From NCBI GenBank assembly GCA_963797095.1, contig CAWCNY010000006.1, forward strand, positions 800,001 through 864,000: a stretch of DNA of 64,000 nt. The letters are read 5' to 3'. A program made the translations under genes and the position numbers. This DNA comes from an uncultured Chloroflexia bacterium. GTDB taxonomy: Bacteria > Chloroflexota > Chloroflexia > QHBQ01 > JADMIH01. Shown one piece after another: positions 991 to 11,176 of this stretch (within the stretch, counting starts at the first letter, position 1; every line of letters begins with the position of its first letter). The notes under the pieces were generated by a model. The model was not told where the DNA came from. It made no database searches and saw nothing but the letters and a program-made list of their open reading frames with translations.

Positions 991-3900
991 GTGCATATTC
1001 CACGACACTACACCAAATCCGATGACGCATTCGAGGGGTTGAGCTTCGTTCCACGCACGTCCAAGATCATCAATCCGGACGGCAAAGCAGTTTTCCTGGC
1101 CGAGAACGTCCAGATACCCGAGACATGGGATCAGGTAGCTCTCGATATCCTGGCACAGAAATACTTCCGCAGGGCAGGCGTGCCCAAGGCGCTGAAGAAG
1201 ATCAAAGAAAAAGGCGTTCCAGAGTGGCTCTGGCGCTCCGTCCCCGACGATGCCGCCCTCTCCGAGCTACCCGATAACGAGCGCTACGGCGGCGAAACCA
1301 ACTCGCGCCAGGTGTTCCACCGCCTCGCGGGCTGCTGGACCTACTGGGGCTGGAAGGGCGGCTATTTCTCCTCCGAAGCCGACGCCCGCAACTACTACAA
1401 CGAGATGCGCTTCATGCTCGCCACGCAGCGAGCCGCCCCCAACTCTCCTCAGTGGTTCAACACCGGCTTGCACTGGGCTTACGGCATCGAAGGCCCACCC
1501 CAGGGCCACCACTACGTGGACGACGCCACGGGCGAGCTAAAGAAATCGACCTCCGCCTACGAGCGACCACAACCCCATGCTTGCGCTCGTGGCAACACAA
1601 AGCTTTTCACCTCCCAGGGCGTTTATCAAATCGGCGAAGTGGTAGAGAACAACCTGATCAATCTTCAAGTCTTTGACGGCGATCGTTTTGTCAAGGTGCT
1701 TGCAGTCAAGAATAATGGGGTTCGGCAGATATTCCGGGCCACTTTGCGAAATGGCAACTTCATCGAATTCACTGACGATCACTTGATCCTTACTGCTGAC
1801 AAGCGCAGCAAGGATGGTGGCTCGTATTCCTGGCAAGAACTAAGGACCATTCTTGGCAACAAGGTTCAGCAGATTAGCTTGCAAACGGTTCCCAGCCGAC
1901 TTGAAGCAGAGCTAGCCCTTGCTGAGGTAAATAGACTGTTTGCTGGCTCTGTTGGACAAGGTAAGTCAAATCTCTCGTCTGAGACGATAGGAACTGTCTT
2001 GGGTCAGGAGCAAGAGCCAGGTGCTGATGACTTGGCGGTCGCCAAAGCTGCTCTGGCAGGTTGGATACTTGGTGATGGCTACTATGGCAAATACAATCGT
2101 AATCAAAAGACTACTCTCTTTGGTGCGATCACCATAAATGACGACGAATATGCTTATGTTACTCGACTATTCACAAGCATATTTGGCGAATACAGGACAG
2201 CTGTTCGCCGAAATGTCCACGACCTCTATCGGACCGTGAAACTCGATTCCAAACGAGTTGACAGCTTTGTGGAAGAGTATGAGCTTAACTCTTCTTCCTA
2301 TACAGCCAATGTCCCACAACTCATCTTCAAAGGCTCTATCGCTGAGAAGCGTGCATTCTTGCGCAGTTTGTTTCAGGCTGATGGTTGTGCACGAATTCGT
2401 AAGGATAAAGGCCGAAACTCAGGTGATGTAATTCTATCAACCATCTCCGAAGAACTAGCTCATGACGTTCTCACCCTTCTCCTTAGTCTGGGCATCTATT
2501 CCACCATCTCCTCTTCTGAAGATGCGAGAGAGAATAGAAAGCGTCTCTATCAAGTCTCTATCTCCTATCATTCGGAGCGTCGCAAGTTTGAAGACTTGAT
2601 TGGTTTTGTTTCTTCAGATAAGATCGCCAAACTTCGCCTATTGAACGAATCGGTTGAAGGCAAGACTACGTCAGCATTATCAGAAGAAACCGTGATGTCC
2701 ATTGACTTCATAGGCGAAGAAGAAGTCTACGACATCCAGACCGAAACAGGTCGCTTCCTTGCCAATGGCGTAGTCGTACACAACTGCTTCATCCAGTCGG
2801 TGGACGATGATCTCGTCAACCCCGGCGGCATCATGGACCTGTGGGTGCGCGAGGCCCGCATCTTCAAGTACGGCTCCGGCACAGGCTCCAACTTCTCCAA
2901 CATGCGCGGCGAGAACGAGCCTCTCTCCGGCGGCGGCAAGTCCTCCGGCCTTCTTTCCTTCCTCAAGATCGGCGACCGCGCGGCGGGCGCAATCAAGTCG
3001 GGAGGCACCACCCGCCGCGCCGCCAAGATGGTCATTGTCGACATCGACCACCCCGACATCGAGCGCTTCATCGACTGGAAAGTGGTCGAGGAGCAGAAGG
3101 TGGCCGCCCTCGTCGCCGGCTCCATCATGTGCCGCAAGCACATCAACGCCACCATGGCCGCCTGGCACGCCCTTCACGAAGCTAAAGAAGCCGACAAGCT
3201 CGCAGCCGAGAAAGCCTACAAGAAATCGATCCGCGAAGCCCGAGCCGCAGGCGTCCCCGACGGCCTGATCGCTCGCGGCCTCGCCCTCGCCGAGCAGGGC
3301 GACAAGACCTTCGACTTCCCAATCTACGACACCGACTGGGAGAGCGAAGCCTACGTGACCGTCTCCGGCCAGAACGCCAACAACTCCGTCCGCATGTCCA
3401 ACGACTTCATCGAAGCCGTCCAGCGCGACCACGATTGGCACCTCACTCGCCGCGTCGACAAGAAGGTCTCCAAGACCCTCCCCGCCCGCGACCTGTGGGC
3501 CCGCATAGGCCGCGCGGCCTGGGCCAGCGCCGACCCCGGTGTCCAGTACGACACCACCATCAACGAGTGGCACACCTGCCCCAACGATGGCCGCATCAAC
3601 GGCTCCAACCCCTGCTCCGAGTACATGTTCCTGGACGACACCGCCTGTATCGCGCCTGATACAAGGATCAGCACGCCCAATGGTTTGCGTACAGTAGCAG
3701 AACTATACGCCGCGCAGGAGCATGGCGAAAATGTATTCGTTACTACCGATCTCTATTCCGAACATGACCATCGCCGTATCACTTCTCATCGTCCGGCATA
3801 TGTTACGCAGGTTGGTGAGCGCGAGGTTTACAGGGTAACCCTCCAAGATGGTCGCTCTGTACGTGCTACCGCCGACCATCGTTTCCTGACCGACAAAGGT

Positions 3901-6900
3901 GAATGGAAGCAAGTTGATGAGTTGGCGGTGGGCCGGGATCGCCTCAGCATACGCGAAAGTGGGAATCCCATAGCCTACACATCTTCTGAAGATGATATCA
4001 AGCGCTGGCAGATGCTGGGCTGGCTCACCGGTGATGGCGTCTTCTCGGAAGGCATAGCTGCACTCGTTTTTGGCCCCGATGAAGGCGAAACCGCCCGCCA
4101 GATGGAAGGCGAGTTCAACCGCCTTGTGGCAGATTCTTATGCTCATGTAGCAACTTCTCCATCCTCAGGTAACGACTTTACTTCTTGGCCTGAATACTCC
4201 TCTACGAATACATCTCAGAGCACAACCGGTGTGCTTGAGCGAGCCTCTATTCGAGCTACCGCGCCCTACAAACTCTGTCACATCGGCGTCCAGAAGAGCG
4301 GTGTGATGCAGATTAGCTCGCAAGCGAAGCCTCTCATACAGCACCTGGAGCAGCACTACGGCTTCAAGCAGGGCACAGCTATCCACAAAGATGTGCCTTC
4401 CTCTATTCACCGAGTGGCTGACGATCTCAAAGTTGCTTACCTTCAGGGTCTTTTCTCCGCAGACGGCACGCTCCGTCCTAACTACACCGAGCATGAGGTG
4501 ATGCTGGCCTCATCCTCGCCTGAGCTATTGCGCTCAGTGCAATTGCTCCTGTCCGATTTCGGTATAGTGAGCAGGATCACCTGGATGCACCCCACGGGCC
4601 GCAAGAATCCACAGGGTCAACTCCACATATACAATCAGCAGGCGCGCAAGTTCCTCACTCTCTTGGGCTTCCCTTGCTCGGTTAGCAAGAACGCCCTCGC
4701 ACAGGAGATACTGAGCCAGCCGTTCCACGGCGCTCTCAAGAACCCACGCCCATCTCGTGTAGTCTCTATCGAGGCTGAGGGCATAACTACAGTGTTCGAT
4801 ATTACCGAGCCTGTCACCCACTCATTCATCGCTGAGGGCATGGTCACGCACAACTGCAACCTCGCGTCCCTCAACCTGATGCACTACCTCAACGGCGACC
4901 CCGATACCATCATCGACGTAGAGGCATACAAGCACGCCTGCCGCCTCTGGACCCTCACCCTCGAAATCTCGGTCGCGATGGCCCAGTACCCATCCGAGAA
5001 GATCGCCGAGCTATCCTACCTCTACCGCACCCTCGGCCTCGGCTACGCCAACCTCGGCGCGCTCCTCATGCGCCTCGGCATCCCCTACGACTCCCCTCGC
5101 GGCTACGCCCTCTGCGGCGCTTTCACCGCCATCATGACAGGCGTCGCCTACGCCACCTCCGCCGAGATCGCCTCCGAGTTGGGTGCCTTCAAGCAATTCG
5201 AGGCCAACCGCGACCCCATGCTCCGCGTGATCCGCAACCACCGTCGCGCCGCCTACAACGCCCCCAACTCCGAGTACGAGGGCCTCACCGTCAAGCCCTC
5301 CGGCATCTCCCCCGCCAACTGCCCTCCCGGCCTCCTAGCCGCCGCCAAAGAAGCGTGGGACGACGCCCTCGAAAAAGGCGAGACCTCAGGCTACCGTAAC
5401 GCCCAGGTCACCGTGATCGCTCCCACAGGCACTATCGGCCTCGTCATGTCCTGCGACACCACAGGCATCGAGCCAGATTTTGCCCTCGTCAAGTTCAAGA
5501 AGCTGGCAGGCGGCGGCTACTTCAAGATCATCAACCAGTCGGTGCCGCCCGCCCTCGCCTACCTCGGCTACTCCGACGAGCAGATCGACGACATCATCAA
5601 GTACGCGGTAGGTCACGGCACCCTCAAAGGCTCGCCCGCCATCACCCACGACAACCTCCGCCTGCTCGGCTTCGACGATGCCGCCCTTGAGCGCATCGAG
5701 TCGGCCCTCCCCTCGGCCTTCGAGCTTGGGTTCGCCTTTAGCCCCTTCGTCCTCGGCGAAGAGTTCTGCAAGGACACCCTCGGCCTCACCGACGACCAGC
5801 TAAACGACCGCGCTGGCATCCTTCCCGCCCTCGGCTTCACCAAAGCCGATATCGCCGCCGCCAACGACTACGTGTGCGGCACCATGACCGTCGAGGGCGC
5901 GCCCCACCTGAAGGACGAGCACCTCAACATCTTCGATTGCGCCAACAAGTGCGGTCGCAAGGGCACGCGCTACCTCTCCCCCTCCTCCCACCTCCACATG
6001 ATGGCCGCCGCCCAGCCCTTCATCACTGGCGCTATCTCCAAGACCATCAACATGCCCCAGGGCGCGACCATCTCCGAGATCGGCGACATCTACATGAAGT
6101 CGTGGCGGCTCATGCTCAAGGCCGTCGCCATCTACCGCGACAACTCCAAGCTGTCTCAACCCCTCAACTCGGCCATCGCCGATGACGAAGAAGAAGAGGA
6201 AGAAGAGGCCGCTATCCCCATCGACAAGCGCATCATGGAGATCGCGGCAGCGGGCGCGCAGGCCGTCCAGACCTCCTACATCGCCCGCCGCCAGAAACTC
6301 CCCAACCGACGCGCCGGTTACACCCAGAAGGCCAACATCGCCGGTCACAACCTCTACATCCGCACAGGCGAGTATGTGGACGGACGCCTCGGCGAGATCT
6401 TCATCGACATGCACAAAGAGGGCGCGGCCTTCCGCTCCGTCATGAACTGCTTCGCCATCGCCGTCTCTCTCGGCCTCCAGTACGGCGTGCCCCTCGAAGA
6501 GTTCGTTGATGCCTTCATCTACACCCGCTTCGAGCCTGCGGGCCGCGTGATCGGCAACGACCACATCAAAATGGTCACCTCCGTTATCGACTACATCTTC
6601 CGCGAGCTAGCCATCTGCTACCTCGACCGCCTCGAACTGGCCCACCTCCCCGAAGGCGAGCAGGGTCGTGGCAACTCGGTCCAGAACCTCGAAGGCCCCA
6701 AAAGGCCCACAGTGAACATCGGCCCCGCAACCAAGGCCACCCCCTCCATGCACCTCGCCTCCCCCGCCCACACCAACGGCAATGGTAACGGCAACGGCCA
6801 CGCCAAGGCCCCCAACGGCAACGGCTCCTCCTCAGCCGCCATCACCCTCACAGCCACAGCCGTAGTGCCCAAAGCCTCCACAGCCACAGCCACCCCCACC

Positions 6901-7044
6901 TCTACCAAAACCTCGGCCATAGCCGAAGCCCGCCTGAAAGGCTACGAAGGCGAATCCTGCCGGGAATGCGGCAACTTCACGTTAGTGCGTAACGGTACCT
7001 GCCTCAAATGCAACACCTGTGGGAGCACTAGCGGATGTAGCTAG
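991..7044 (+). CDS. nrdJ: Vitamin B12-dependent (class II) ribonucleotide reductase precursor with two inteins; about 1213 aa after splicing
   Basis: [30 protein letters not shown] (thiyl radical Cys), CNLASLN, APTGTIG, C-terminal TSCPD-like domain and CxxC..CxxC..GCS tail; AGGAGG RBS at 980-985. Confidence 0.97.
1582..2784 (+). mobile_element. Intein 1 in NrdJ (401 aa) with LAGLIDADG homing endonuclease
   Basis: Starts at C (PQPHA|CARGNTK), has block B TDDH and LAGLIDADG-like motifs LAGWILGDG and [10 protein letters not shown], ends VVVHN|CFIQ. Codon usage is visibly AT-richer than the extein. Confidence 0.95.
3646..4854 (+). mobile_element. Intein 2 in NrdJ (403 aa) with LAGLIDADG homing endonuclease
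   Basis: Starts at C (DDTA|CIAPDTRI), has block B TADH and motifs MLGWLTGDG and [10 protein letters not shown], ends MVTHN|CNLAS. Confidence 0.95.
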
Positions 7045-7075
7045 CTATGTGACATAGCAATCACACCAAGAAACC

Positions 7076-7109
7076 GAGGCGAGCAACAGTTATGACTGTT
7101 GCTCGCCTC
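7076..7109. terminator. Hairpin between the convergent nrdJ and antitoxin genes
   Basis: gaggcgagcaacagt-tatg-actgttgctcgcctc, perfect 15-bp stem. Confidence 0.75.
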
Positions 7110-7151
7110 ACTTTCGACTCTCTAATACGTCTACATCATGACGCTATTTTC

Positions 7152-7529
7152 CTATTTCGAAGTAGATATCGCAGTCACCGAATTTGCTACAACCTCACTA
7201 AGTGGTTCGATAACCATATTGCCAGTCACCGTCAAACTGTATGGAAACGTTTGAGTAACCATTGTTTGAAATGGTGTGCTAGGTTGCATCCATACTGGTT
7301 TGCCTTGGTTTCCCCTACCTAGAGCCTTTTCAATTGCGGCTTCCCGGATGAAGGCAGATAGTTTCATATGCATTTGTTCGGCCCGCCCTGCCACGAGCTC
7401 AAAATCTTCCTGTGCAAACGCCACAGACACTATGCTGCGGCTTTGCTTTACCGGAGTTCTTTCTTCTGCACTAGAAAAATCCCAATTGCTTGGATTTGAA
7501 AGGTCGTCCTGTTGGTTTTTCGCATTCAT
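7152..7529 (-). CDS. Putative RHH/CopG (BrnA-like) antitoxin with C-terminal extension, 125 aa
   Basis: ATG overlaps the toxin stop (ATGA) and has an AAGGAG RBS. WDFSSAE then IVSVAF..EDFELV..RA..MKLSAFIREAA matches an RHH pattern. Confidence 0.7.
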   Translation of the reverse strand: MNAKNQQDDLSNPSNWDFSSAEERTPVKQSRSIVSVAFAQEDFELVAGRAEQMHMKLSAFIREAAIEKALGRGNQGKPVWMQPSTPFQTMVTQTFPYSLTVTGNMVIEPLSEVVANSVTAISTSK

Positions 7530-7858
7530 TCTTTCCTCTCCTTTTTGGTCAGTGCTGTAAGTTCGCTTTCTTTGCAGTACCAGCCTGTCACCGGTCGCCA
7601 TATTGCCTTATCAATTGTCGGTTCGATGGGGATTGTGATACAGGCCCCTCCATTATCTTTTCCGATCAGCAAAAGAGGAGCCCGCCGCCCTTTTCGATTT
7701 GGGACCACAATATGTTTGTTCAGTAATATCTGTGCAACCTGCCGTGGCGTGAGCCTGCGCGACGCAAGTTTGTCCTCATTCTCGTCATCAAAGGCAAATC
7801 CATCGATGAATGATATTGACAGATCCAAACCACTGTAGTATAATAGCCGCAGAAACAC
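7526..7858 (-). CDS. Putative BrnT-like (RelE-fold) toxin; start codon uncertain
   Basis: FAFDDENEDKL...LTPRQVAQIL...LLIGKDNGG..ITIPI...WRPVTGW matches the BrnT-like layout; translationally coupled to the downstream RHH gene. Confidence 0.65.
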   Translation of the reverse strand: MFLRLLYYSGLDLSISFIDGFAFDDENEDKLASRRLTPRQVAQILLNKHIVVPNRKGRRAPLLLIGKDNGGACITIPIEPTIDKAIWRPVTGWYCKESELTALTKKERKE

Positions 7859-7932
7859 TACAAACCACTACACATCCACGATTGTAGTTAGACATTGGTT
7901 CAATAATAACGCATAAGTGAGCAAAATACAAG

Positions 7933-8397
7933 ATGGAAACTGAAAGAAGCCGAGACATCGCAGACGAAACGAGTGGTGGCATTGATCAAGTAGATTGCGA
8001 ATGGCTCATCTTAGCTGATGGTGCCCAAGTCGCAAACAACAAACTTTACCTAATGGGTGGCGGATGGGATGTATTGACTGTGAATGGAGGATTCCCCGCA
8101 CATAAGCATCTGGGCATTGCCTCCAGCTTCCGAATACCTTGGAACGAGACGAATAGAAAGCACAATATTGAAATTACGATCGCGGACGACGATGCAACTG
8201 AATTGGCCAAGCTAGAGGCCCAAGTGGAGGTTGGTCGCCCTCCGGGTGTACCTTTAGGGCACTCACAGAGAGTGCAACTAGCTCTCGAAACTGTCATGGT
8301 GTTGCCTAAGGCGTGCACGTACGTGATTACCGCGTATATCAATGGGAAAGAAGCTCAGCGAACGACTTTCTTCGTTCGAGCCTTAGCAGCACGCTAG
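7933..8397 (+). CDS. DUF6941-like beta-rich protein
   Basis: ILADGAQV.NNKLYLMGGGWD N-terminal motif and a Y.I...ING.E...TTF C-terminus, recalled from DUF6941 family members. Confidence 0.6.
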   Translation: METERSRDIADETSGGIDQVDCEWLILADGAQVANNKLYLMGGGWDVLTVNGGFPAHKHLGIASSFRIPWNETNRKHNIEITIADDDATELAKLEAQVEVGRPPGVPLGHSQRVQLALETVMVLPKACTYVITAYINGKEAQRTTFFVRALAAR

Positions 8398-8443
8398 TTT
8401 TACTTCTATCGTACAATTTCCAAACACAAAGGAGGTGATTACT

Positions 8444-8575
8444 ATGGCGCGCCGTCGCAAAGGTGGAGGCTATCATTCCACCCATAGTGGTAAATTCGTC
8501 ACGACTAAGTGGGCCGAATCCAAGACAGGTAAAGGCCACACGACCTTCGTAACGAACAAAACCGGTAAGAAGTAG
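8444..8575 (+). CDS. Small basic protein, 43 aa (not in the ORF track)
   Basis: Strong RBS AAAGGAGGTGA, then ATG encoding MARRRKGGGYHSTHSGKFVTTKWAESKTGKGHTTFVTNKTGKK*. Confidence 0.7.
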   Translation: MARRRKGGGYHSTHSGKFVTTKWAESKTGKGHTTFVTNKTGKK

Positions 8576-8834
8576 CAGTATTTAGGAGGCTAGAATTCGA
8601 TGCCTAAGTGGCACCGCTCATCAAGGTCGAGAGCATCGTTGCTGTCGACCTTGATGCTTTCTAAGTTTTCGTGTACTAAGAGATTCTACCAGCATGACAA
8701 ATACAACTTCGCGCCTTCGTTCCCATACCCCCGCTTGCAACCGCAGAACGCTCTTCCCTTACACCCACAAATCTGCCATCACACCCCAGCATAGCGCCCA
8801 TGCCCGCCAAACACCACCTACAGGCTGTTAATCT

Positions 8835-9182
8835 ATGCTAGCCCACTTCACCATCGCAGGCGGCATCCTAGTGTGCCCCGCCTGTGATGGTAACATTGAC
8901 ATAGAGTTCGAACTCCTCGACCATCGCCCAACCCTTGATCCTAGCGCCTGGGATCACGTCGTAGAGTGCAGCATAGACGTCCGATCAGGGCGCATCCGCG
9001 TCTACGGCTGCTTCTCAGACCCCGCCACCGCTCCCACCCTTGACCTGCCGTCCGGCACCTATAGCGTGCTCGTCTATTATGGCGGCTTCGATACGATAGA
9101 CCGATATGGACTCACAGGTGACGACCACTACCGACTCACCTTCTGGCCCGGCACGTTCATTGAGCCTCGCGTGCTCAAATAG
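8835..9182 (+). CDS. Hypothetical protein (ComJ/immunity-like beta fold), probably N-terminally truncated
   Basis: WDHVVECSIDVRSGRI..G, LPSGTY.V.V and DHYRLTFWP motifs; no clear RBS. Confidence 0.5.
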   Translation: MLAHFTIAGGILVCPACDGNIDIEFELLDHRPTLDPSAWDHVVECSIDVRSGRIRVYGCFSDPATAPTLDLPSGTYSVLVYYGGFDTIDRYGLTGDDHYRLTFWPGTFIEPRVLK

Positions 9183-9202
9183 TTCAGCTATCTTCCCAGC
9201 AT

Positions 9203-9248
9203 AGTCCGCGAAGGTGGGCCTCGTTTGCGTAGCCCCCGATTTCAATCG
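9203..9248 (+). repeat. REP-like element, copy 1
   Basis: agtccgcgaaggtgggcctcgtttgcgtagcccccgatttcaatcg, near-identical to 10474-10519 and 11144-11176. Confidence 0.85.
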
Positions 9249-9313
9249 ACAGGCAATCTCTGTTATCATATCCCCACCCTCCGCTCGTCACTCACATATC
9301 ACGTATCAATCTC

Positions 9314-10390
9314 ATGACCACTCTCCCCACCACCCCCACCTCCATCACCGCCGCTTACCTCGACGCCCTCCTGCGCGACTACCCCGACGCGCCCTACAGC
9401 CCCGTAACCGCCTTCACTATAGACCGCCTATCCAAAGGCACCTCAGGCGCGGGCCTCTACGTCGTCACCATCGACCGCGACCCCGCCACCGACCCCCTAC
9501 GCTTCATCCTCAAACTATCCGGCGGCCCCAAAGAAGTCTACTTCTACCGCGACCTCGCCCCCCGCCTCCCCATCGACACCCCCGCCGTCCTCGACGCCCG
9601 CATACTCGACGACGGCACCACCTGGCTCCTCATGGAACAGATCACAGGCGTCAAAGACGGCCTCGCCTGGGACCAATCCGACTACCGCGCCGTCCTCACC
9701 GGCATGGCCCGCCTTCACGCCGCATACTGGTCGCGCCCCGACCTCCTGGCCGGCTGCCCCTGGCTCTGGCGGCCCGACCCCACCTCCCTCCAAACCCTCG
9801 TCGCCGCCCGCAAAACCGACCTCCAAGCCATAGTCGCCTCCACCCTCCCCCAACAGCTACCCAGCATCTTCACCCCCGACCGCCTCTCCCTCGCTCTCCA
9901 CCTCCTCGACCACCCCCACAAACTCTTCGACCCCCTGCTCGCCCCCGGCACCACCCTCGTCCACGGCGACTACTGGTTCCACAACGTCCAGATCACCCGC
10001 ACAGGCCGCATCGTCCTCGTAGACTGGCAAGATCCCCAGACCTGGTCCGGCCTCTGGGAGCTAGCCTACTTCCTCAACCTTCTCCTTCCCGTAAGCGCCA
10101 CCGAATACCGCACATCCCTCCCCCTCGACGAAACCCTCATGATAAACTGCTACACCGCCGCCCTCTCCGACCAGGGCGTATCCCTCCCCCAGCCCGACTT
10201 CGACGCCGCCCTCCTGGCCGCCCGCGTCTGGCACCCCATCCAGCACTGGATACGCCAGTACGGCTACGCCGCCGCCAAAGGCCTTCTCCCCACCGGCGAC
10301 CTTCAGGCCCTCAACCCCGGCGCAGCCCAATTCCTCGCCTCCACCTTCTCCCGCTGGGACCACGACGCCCACACCCTCCTGAACACCTAA
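9314..10390 (+). CDS. Aminoglycoside/choline kinase-like phosphotransferase
   Basis: FILK, KEVYFY, LLME, LVHGDYWFHN (Brenner motif) and LVDWQ. Confidence 0.85.
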   Translation: MTTLPTTPTSITAAYLDALLRDYPDAPYSPVTAFTIDRLSKGTSGAGLYVVTIDRDPATDPLRFILKLSGGPKEVYFYRDLAPRLPIDTPAVLDARILDDGTTWLLMEQITGVKDGLAWDQSDYRAVLTGMARLHAAYWSRPDLLAGCPWLWRPDPTSLQTLVAARKTDLQAIVASTLPQQLPSIFTPDRLSLALHLLDHPHKLFDPLLAPGTTLVHGDYWFHNVQITRTGRIVLVDWQDPQTWSGLWELAYFLNLLLPVSATEYRTSLPLDETLMINCYTAALSDQGVSLPQPDFDAALLAARVWHPIQHWIRQYGYAAAKGLLPTGDLQALNPGAAQFLASTFSRWDHDAHTLLNT

Positions 10391-10473
10391 CCCCAACCAA
10401 CCCCACCAACCAACCCACCAACCAACCCCACCGACCACCCGCCAAACAAAACCCACCTAACTCCCCCCAACCC
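10388..10473 (+). repeat. Degenerate C/A-rich simple repeat (CCAA/CCCACCAA units)
   Basis: ccccaaccaaccccaccaaccaacccaccaaccaaccccaccgaccaccc. Confidence 0.6.
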
Positions 10474-10519
10474 AGTCCGCGAAGGCGGACTTCGTTTGCG
10501 TAGCCCCCGATTTCAATCG
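10474..10519 (+). repeat. REP-like element, copy 2
   Basis: agtccgcgaaggcggacttcgtttgcgtagcccccgatttcaatcg, containing the hairpin agtccgc-gaag-gcggact. Confidence 0.85.
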
Positions 10520-10563
10520 GCGGGCGCTCTTGCCCTCTTGCAGCCTTCCAGTATACTTACCCC

Positions 10564-11145
10564 ATGCCCGAAATCTACATATCCACCGACATCGAGACCG
10601 ACGGCCCTATCCCCGGCCCCAACTCCATGCTCAGCTTCGCCTCCGCCGCCTACTTAGCTGACAAAACCCTTGTTAGCACCTTTTCCGCAAACCTCGTCAC
10701 CCTACCCTCCGCTACGGGCGATCCTACTACAATGGCCTGGTGGCAAACCCAACCCGAAGCGTGGCAAGCCTCCCGCGAGAACCCCCAGCCACCCGAACTC
10801 GTCATGCCTCAATACGTCACGTGGCTTAAGGCTCTTCCAGGTAAGCCCGTCTTCGTCGCCTACCCTGTCGCCTTCGATTTCATGTTCGTCTACTGGTACC
10901 TCATCCGCTTCGCCGGAGAAAGCCCCTTCTCCTACTCCGCACTTGACATAAAAACCTACGCCATGGCCCTTCTCAAGAAGTCCTACCGCAACTCCACAAA
11001 AAGGAATATGCCCCACCGCTGGTTCGACCCACTCCCCCACACTCATAAAGCCCTCGATGATGCCATCGAACAAGGTGCGCTCTTCTGCAACATGCTTGCG
11101 GAACGCCTCAGCGCCAACGACAATCTCAACAATCAGCCAGACTAG
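10564..11145 (+). CDS. DEDDh 3'-5' exoribonuclease (Rv2179c-like)
   Basis: [15 protein letters not shown] and HKALDDA exonuclease motifs. Confidence 0.85.
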
Positions 11146-11176
11146 TCCGCGAAGGCGGACTTCGTTTGCGTAGCCC
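11144..11176 (+). repeat. REP-like element, copy 3 (3'-truncated)
   Basis: agtccgcgaaggcggacttcgtttgcgtagccc, which then runs directly into racemase coding sequence. Confidence 0.85.

Follow-up and report, generated by a model that had tools for sequence, protein, structure and literature searches.

A BrnT-like toxin gene, the gene for its ribbon-helix-helix (RHH) antitoxin and a divergently transcribed gene encoding a DUF6941 protein (PF22091) form a conserved three-gene module, one copy of which lies in a 64,000-nucleotide stretch of DNA (the window) from an uncultured Chloroflexia bacterium (GenBank assembly GCA_963797095.1, contig CAWCNY010000006.1, positions 800,001 to 864,000). Across loci selected by their toxin, the C-terminal tail of the antitoxin occurs only where DUF6941 does, a locus with a DUF6941 remnant (L024) still being tailed. 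As a genetic association the three-gene module is well supported; as a mechanism it is put forward as a hypothesis. The original prediction, made from the DNA of the window, described a four-gene island with a possible toxin-antitoxin-chaperone (TAC)-like system using a partner other than SecB. All four genes are present where it placed them, but the conserved module comprises three, the fourth, a 43-aa open reading frame (ORF), falling outside it. A paper-library search found no paper mentioning DUF6941 or PF22091, although supplementary files were outside that search and might mention the family, and as far as the searches here reach, a link of DUF6941 to toxin-antitoxin (TA) pairs is not in print.

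A pattern scan with the toxin alignment, with one genome kept per species, gave 45 loci, nearly all from metagenome-assembled genomes of Chloroflexota and one from Solirubrobacteraceae. An antitoxin homologue follows the toxin in 45/45, and an intact DUF6941 gene stands head-to-head upstream of the toxin in 35/45 (34 detected by phmmer, and L032 by Pfam at E 1e-7). Among the remaining loci, a 59-aa stub of DUF6941 survives in L024, L037 is truncated where its contig stops and 8 have housekeeping genes in the DUF6941 position. All-against-all clustering of the flanking ORFs revealed no other flanking family in more than 4 of the 45 loci. The orientation is constant, the DUF6941 gene of the window and of every BrnT-type locus being divergent from the pair, and DUF6941 distances follow toxin-antitoxin distances (Spearman 0.65, reached by 0/500 permutations). 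Together, the loci show that toxin, antitoxin and DUF6941 are passed on, and lost, as one unit.

The antitoxin of the window (7152..7529, minus strand) has 125 aa, consisting of an N-terminal 'WDF' segment, the RHH at about residues 32-69 and the C-terminal tail, and its ATG overlaps the toxin stop. Its RHH matches in Pfam and NCBIfam are weak and cover residues 32-68 (DUF6290, E 3.4e-4; NikA-like, 5.6e-4; RelB_antitoxin, E 0.023), and the aligned antitoxins share an N-terminal 'ELExPExWDF' segment together with the RHH. The tail, predicted to continue about 55 aa beyond the RHH, amounts to 56 residues (residues 70-125, 7155..7322, minus strand) rich in S, T, G and V and with few charged residues. 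It extends 33-60 residues past the RHH in 34/34 measured antitoxins linked to DUF6941, a count that leaves out the linked locus L044, whereas in 8/8 pairs without DUF6941 the antitoxin stops 6-22 residues past the RHH. The tail measures 44 residues in L024 and 50 in L037. Tails differ from the antitoxin core in composition, with 32% S, T and G compared with 14% in the core, and 15% charged residues compared with 33%. The catalytic His is kept in the toxins of all 8 tail-less pairs, which argues that the tail is not needed for neutralization.

On a quick tree of toxin and antitoxin core, from which the tail columns were excluded and whose backbone is weak, the DUF6941-less rows fall at about 4-5 places; 5 changes are needed, and starred branches force 2 of them (e.g., L041 beside L042, 98*). 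Tail distance also follows DUF6941 distance when the core is controlled for (partial r 0.23, 0/500 permutations), a modest effect that kinship may inflate, and the tail correlates slightly more with DUF6941 than with its own core (r 0.36 versus 0.29).

The two transcription units meet in a shared control region. In the window, a sigma-70 consensus promoter that agrees with TTGACA-17-TATAAT at 12 of 12 positions (7816..7844, plus strand) faces DUF6941, its -35 box lying over the toxin start region as in related loci, and four ACTACA/TGTAGT hexamers (7834..7888), a candidate shared operator for the RHH antitoxin, are found within 55 bp, compared with 31 such hexamers in the whole 64 kb. The layout was derived from an alignment by eye of 32 linked regions. 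A distance of only 24-45 bp separates the first conserved codons of toxin and DUF6941 in most linked loci. The -35 element of the toxin operon is a TTGACA box over the DUF6941 ribosome-binding site, with a -10 element, TACAAT, inside an ACTACAAT repeat; the -35 element of DUF6941 is provided by the toxin start, where ATGTCAA reads TTGACAT on the opposite strand. ACTAC repeats and an ACTAC-N4-5-GTAGT palindrome lie between the two TTGACA boxes. The density of ACTAC/GTAGT is 12.1 per kb in 44 distinct linked regions versus 1.2 per kb elsewhere in the same loci, and 27 of the 44 have at least two copies, 19 at least three, and 14 the palindrome. The alignments show that the two transcription units share crossed, overlapping predicted promoters with ACTAC/GTAGT repeats between them. 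The RHH antitoxin would bind the ACTAC repeats and would repress both promoters. At the other end of the pair, 42 bp past the antitoxin stop, a terminator-like hairpin (7075..7110, minus strand; a stem of 16 bp, then a run of T) is likely to mark the end of the toxin-antitoxin transcript.

The coupling of the pair reported in the original prediction is evident, because the toxin ORF (7526-7858, minus strand) and the antitoxin ORF (7152-7529, minus strand) overlap by ATGA. The toxin ORF is open to GTG 7858 (110 codons), but toxin homologues have only 91-99 aa, and the start is therefore placed near TTG 7828, which gives a protein of about 100 aa (7526..7828, minus strand) in keeping with homologue lengths. 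The claim that this toxin is BrnT-like holds at the level of the family and not for the single protein. The window toxin itself matches no Pfam family, including BrnT_toxin (PF04365), whereas BrnT_toxin is matched by 8/24 close toxin homologues (best E 4e-4) and by 29/66 diverse family members (best E 1.7e-10). A profile search of 1.84 billion representatives yielded 668 relatives at E up to 1e-3. In the PDB, the family profile A4 has an end-to-end alignment to the toxin 7vd7_A (E 0.004) and matches 9sdc_C as well; against the same sequences, the close toxin profile A1 gave nothing but uS15 at E 1. By transitive homology of sequence, the window toxin is assigned to the BrnT superfamily.

Within this family the window toxin is aberrant. 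The catalytic His column has H in 55/62 family members and R in the window, and the next column has G in 54/62 and again R in the window, so that R34 and R35 (numbering of the 110-aa ORF) replace HG; the position before the catalytic His is variable in the family. Where relatives start with ATG (M-S-M-P...), the window has CTG, the ORF being otherwise intact. The Arg of the SAR motif in 7vd7_A, which we take to be the equivalent of BrnT R72, aligns with an invariant W of the toxin family. According to the available text of one study (PMC13284704), K16, H17 and R72 contribute to the toxicity of BrnT, and H10A abolishes that of RelS (PMC13284704). Residues needed for BrnT toxicity are lacking in the window toxin, which has RR in place of HG. 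The changes from HG to RR and from ATG to CTG make it probable that the local toxin has been disarmed; the antitoxin, DUF6941 and its strong promoter remain, and this copy may be a relic preserving antitoxin and DUF6941.

The arrangement of the pair is that of BrnT/BrnA of Brucella abortus (PF04365; PDB 3U97; Heaton et al. 2012, as cited in the available text of PMC13284704), with the toxin first, an RHH antitoxin downstream and, in the window, an ATGA overlap. The toxin family described here retains the conserved His of the KHG motif, although the window copy has R. Unlike canonical BrnA, which has neither, the antitoxin of the module adds a C-terminal tail and a DUF6941 partner. The same genome contains a second, canonical brnTA pair (L224, contig 3, 442978-443232 and downstream), in which BrnT has 89 aa and carries the His; its BrnA-like antitoxin has 111 aa with the RHH at the C-terminus and no tail, and no DUF6941 gene is nearby.

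The third gene, correctly anticipated as divergent, beta-rich and DUF6941-like, encodes a protein of 154 aa (7933..8397, plus strand) that is the candidate partner of the tail. It is a full-length member of PF22091, a Pfam family with no described function (E 6.5e-19; 69 bits versus a cut-off of 27; profile positions 2-125 of 125), and was found at E 2.0e-18 in a scan of its own genome. An AlphaFold2 model from a 42-sequence alignment (pLDDT 90.8, pTM 0.81) is all-beta, built from ten strands and lacking any long helix; its low-confidence N-terminal extension of ~19 residues has no counterpart in homologues. Comparison of the DUF6941 profile with PDB sequences gave as its best match the IgV domain of PD-L1 at E 0.09, which was taken as chance. 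In the ESM Atlas, the stored homologue P0043 retrieved only unnamed clusters with scores below 0.9. The SecB family was absent from the Pfam and NCBIfam scans. DUF6941 is present in many other phyla and, within the phylum, in 127/301 sampled genomes (four unpublished ones being counted in); it occurs in 0/27 genomes of three families of the window's own class.

DUF6941 genes also adjoin other kinds of TA pair, as seen in a survey of 30 loci of the phylum chosen by Pfam score. In L060 (836-1884, minus strand), DUF6941 is followed by HicA (E 3.4e-5) and a HicB-like protein (E 1.2e-6) in a tricistronic operon, and the HicB-like match stops at residue 82, after which a 38-aa S/T/V-rich tail replaces the DNA-binding part. 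In L056 (942-1884, minus strand), an 83-aa protein whose N-terminal extension is rich in S, T and V lies between DUF6941 and the YafQ gene (E 3.2e-31) that follows. In L053, L055 and L062 (L062, 952-1908, minus strand), DUF6941 is followed by a protein of 75-80 aa, similarly extended at its N-terminus, and then by ParE/RelE (E 1.3e-8), and the small proteins of L056, L062, L053 and L055 share the extension motif IKxTNVR/IR. L052 has DUF6941, then RHH, then PIN, with no extension. In L073, a second BrnT-like pair is divergent from DUF6941 and its antitoxin has a tail of ~35 aa. Same-strand operons with DUF6941 are confined to the HicAB, YafQ and ParE examples.

What might explain an antitoxin tail that comes and goes with a divergent gene of another family? 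The established parallel is the TAC system, in which a HigBA, HicAB or MqsRA pair shares one operon with a SecB homologue, and a C-terminal ChAD extension makes the antitoxin chaperone-dependent, deletion of the ChAD rendering it chaperone-independent; the ChAD regions are dissimilar between TAC systems (all as given in the available parts of PMC5105189). Judged by what the available text of PMC5105189 and PMC6377645 says of TAC systems such as HigB1-HigA1-SecB(TA) of M. tuberculosis, both kinds of system consist of a type II pair and a small third protein. Both have a poorly conserved antitoxin extension only where the third gene occurs, relatives lacking the extension being plain two-gene pairs, and in this comparative sense the extension goes with the partner here, as the long tails of the 34 linked antitoxins and the short ends of the 8 unlinked ones attest. 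In both, the third-gene family has been recruited by several TA families, here BrnTA, HicAB, YafQ and ParE. The differences are equally clear: the third component is an all-beta DUF6941 protein and not a SecB homologue, the main family diverges from a shared crossed promoter, so that neither in the window nor in the BrnT-type loci are the three genes in one operon, the extensions can be N-terminal, and most DUF6941 genes adjoin no TA pair. By definition the module is therefore not a member of the TAC group, and it plausibly works like one.

By this analogy, DUF6941 would bind the antitoxin tail and would let the antitoxin fold or escape degradation, a chaperone addiction as in SecB-type TAC systems; were DUF6941 lost or titrated away, the toxin would be released. 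That the tailed antitoxin needs DUF6941 in this way is, in our judgment, a proposition with even chances of being right or wrong. The part of the original prediction that proposed a TAC-like module with a non-SecB partner is strongly supported by comparison, through synteny, the covariation of the tail, the shared promoter and the extended antitoxins in other TA families, and is weakened by the solitary state of most DUF6941 genes and the apparent inactivation of the window toxin. A broader proposal, that DUF6941 proteins are new ATP-independent small beta-sandwich chaperones or 'addiction partners', recruited repeatedly by BrnTA, HicAB, YafQ-type and ParE/RelE-type systems through unrelated N- or C-terminal antitoxin extensions, is offered tentatively, and we would sooner expect it to fail than to hold.

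Several observations weigh against dependence of the antitoxin on DUF6941, and most of them concern DUF6941 genes that lack the pair. When loci were picked solely by similarity to the window's DUF6941 subfamily, 34 of the best 80 of 237 had the toxin-antitoxin pair, 5 had an antitoxin without a detectable toxin and 41 carried neither, 4 of these 41 having too little upstream sequence to judge. For the TA-less genes no alternative neighbour emerged, any neighbour family being shared by at most 7-9 loci. On a quick DUF6941 tree of 129 distinct rows, again with a weak backbone, the TA-linked rows all fall in one subfamily clade, interleaved with TA-less rows; 21 changes are needed, and at least 10 are forced by well-supported branches. 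Many lineages have thus lost the TA pair and kept DUF6941, which implies that DUF6941 has a function of its own. The toxin model matched 0/30 and 0/60 phylum loci with DUF6941 and 0/80 DUF6941 loci from other phyla; DUF6941 is mostly solitary and therefore not a dedicated TA component. In a Pfam tally, 4 of 148 small ORFs, sampled from 178 that lay no more than 330 bp from one of 83 DUF6941 genes, matched a TA family, and 0/148 (sampled from 315) did so in the distal control at 600 bp or more. Furthermore, DUF6941 and SecB are not homologous, the DUF6941 gene of the BrnT-type family is divergent and outside the operon, unlike the third gene of TAC, and there are just 2 independent DUF6941/tail contrasts on supported branches of weak-backbone quick trees, too few for a sign test.

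A general association of DUF6941 with TA systems was accordingly rejected on the adjacent and distal tallies and on the lack of any case in the 60 phylum loci and the 80 loci from other phyla. The association exists and is limited to a minority of DUF6941 genes. How the pair disappears can be seen in genomes whose flanks are 85-94% identical: relative to L097, the toxin-antitoxin cassette is a precise ~740-bp indel that ends just before the DUF6941 ribosome-binding site, its end points differing slightly among the three TA-less genomes L092, L107 and L114, in which an enoyl-CoA-hydratase-like gene immediately precedes DUF6941. Loss of the pair with retention of DUF6941 is frequent. Some modules are found in a decayed state: L098, L105 and L137 are left with a tailed antitoxin and DUF6941, the toxin being undetectable, and L145 and L152 with a truncated antitoxin and no toxin.

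Such persistence would also be expected if the coupling were only regulatory, with DUF6941 independent, the cassette sitting on its promoter, and the RHH antitoxin co-regulating it or the cassette stabilizing the locus; the tail might then be a degron or serve oligomerization or conditional cooperativity. The crossed promoters and shared ACTAC/GTAGT operator are the best-documented link between the genes, and the divergent, not co-transcribed, position of DUF6941 fits as well. Yet coupling of this kind leaves unexplained why the tail is missing from all 8 pairs without DUF6941 and present in all 34 measured pairs with it, why the tail follows DUF6941 slightly more closely than its own core, and why the antitoxins associated with HicB, YafQ and ParE carry extensions in same-strand DUF6941 operons, and we consider it unlikely as a full account. 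A further explanation, a historical accident in which one ancestral TA insertion beside DUF6941 was inherited vertically with no functional link, could appeal to the origin of nearly all loci in one phylum and to the gene order that kin share. Against it, the flanking genes are not conserved, the AT-richer island is absent from 20 relatives of this genome, tail and DUF6941 have been lost together repeatedly, and the promoter and operator architecture is conserved at 32-57% protein identity; already disfavored, it has hardly any likelihood left.

The dependence could also run in reverse, with DUF6941 as a sensor or effector for a phage or stress signal that the tailed antitoxin monitors or sequesters, the pair acting as a guard triggered by an attack on DUF6941. 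This would account for the asymmetry by which the tailed pair is never seen without DUF6941 and DUF6941 often without the pair. It is in keeping with reports, in the available text of the sources, that TAC systems sense phage proteins (bioRxiv 10.1101/2024.02.24.581848, PMC11618068), and with the behavior of the module as a mobile unit absent from the 20 relatives. However, the five island proteins matched none of the families in PADLOC-DB at E up to 1, PHROGs at E up to 1 gave nothing beyond two chance-level matches, no defence-island context was seen, and elsewhere DUF6941 stands in housekeeping contexts, as in L047 (1465-2543), where the DUF6941 gene belongs to another clade and overlaps a thymidylate-kinase-like gene (tmk) at its start. 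A guard of this type is quite improbable.

If the broader proposal of DUF6941 chaperones were true, it would establish a second, SecB-independent class of toxin-antitoxin-chaperone systems, whose BrnT-type members would work as bidirectional genetic switches, the promoter of the partner being under the control of the antitoxin as well. TAC systems have so far been defined by SecB-like chaperones and are now models for coupling antitoxin stability to phage sensing; a second, unrelated partner family with the same genetic signature, an antitoxin extension that disappears along with the partner, would make chaperone addiction a convergent design principle. It would also provide the first functional handle on DUF6941, a widespread family, and a compact, testable system of three genes in ~1.3 kb with a conserved operator. 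For annotation, the warning is that both the tail of the antitoxin and the adjacent hypothetical gene are parts of the system.

The window is best explained as having a horizontally acquired copy of this conserved three-gene module, in which a BrnT-superfamily RNase toxin and a BrnA-like antitoxin, with a presumed toxin-binding segment ahead of the RHH, are joined by a DUF6941 protein of predicted beta-sandwich type. The island is AT-richer, as originally described, with a G+C content of 0.43-0.51 over ~6900-8850 compared with 0.60-0.68 in the flanks. When 20 relatives (12 from the same genus and 8 from the same order, the unpublished genome G320 among them) were searched at the DNA level, the region 7050-9190 had zero matches, and the island is therefore regarded as an acquisition of this genome. 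The only parts of the query that were matched were the end of the upstream reductase gene (6300-7045) and a kinase-like gene (~9345-10295), on different contigs.

The upstream neighbour of the island is an ORF for a 2017-aa class II ribonucleotide reductase (991-7044), which by eye has two intein-like insertions, each ending in HNC; these insertions have a lower G+C content (~0.53-0.57 at 3600-4950) and are conspicuous in the composition profile. At the island edge, a 115-aa ORF (8835-9182) had zero matches in Pfam, NCBIfam, PADLOC and PHROGs. The orphan basic 43-aa ORF, predicted behind the divergent gene, is indeed present 3' of DUF6941 (8444..8575, plus strand) with a strong AAGGAGG Shine-Dalgarno sequence. 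Its membership in the module did not survive comparison: a similar small basic ORF stands beside DUF6941 in 1/34 loci, 300 other genomes of the phylum gave 1 borderline match (E 0.008), and it was rejected as a fourth module gene. The sole case among the 34, in L019, is a 55-aa basic ORF ~90 bp 3' of DUF6941, whose 'KTGTFV' resembles by eye the 'SGKFV' and 'TTFV' of the 43-aa ORF. Beyond the island, a repeat of ~60 nt, probably a small intergenic repeat element, is found at 9192-9258, ~10466-10525 and ~11137-11176, recurs in this genome, on contig 4 as well, and has many copies in G312, a relative from the same genus.

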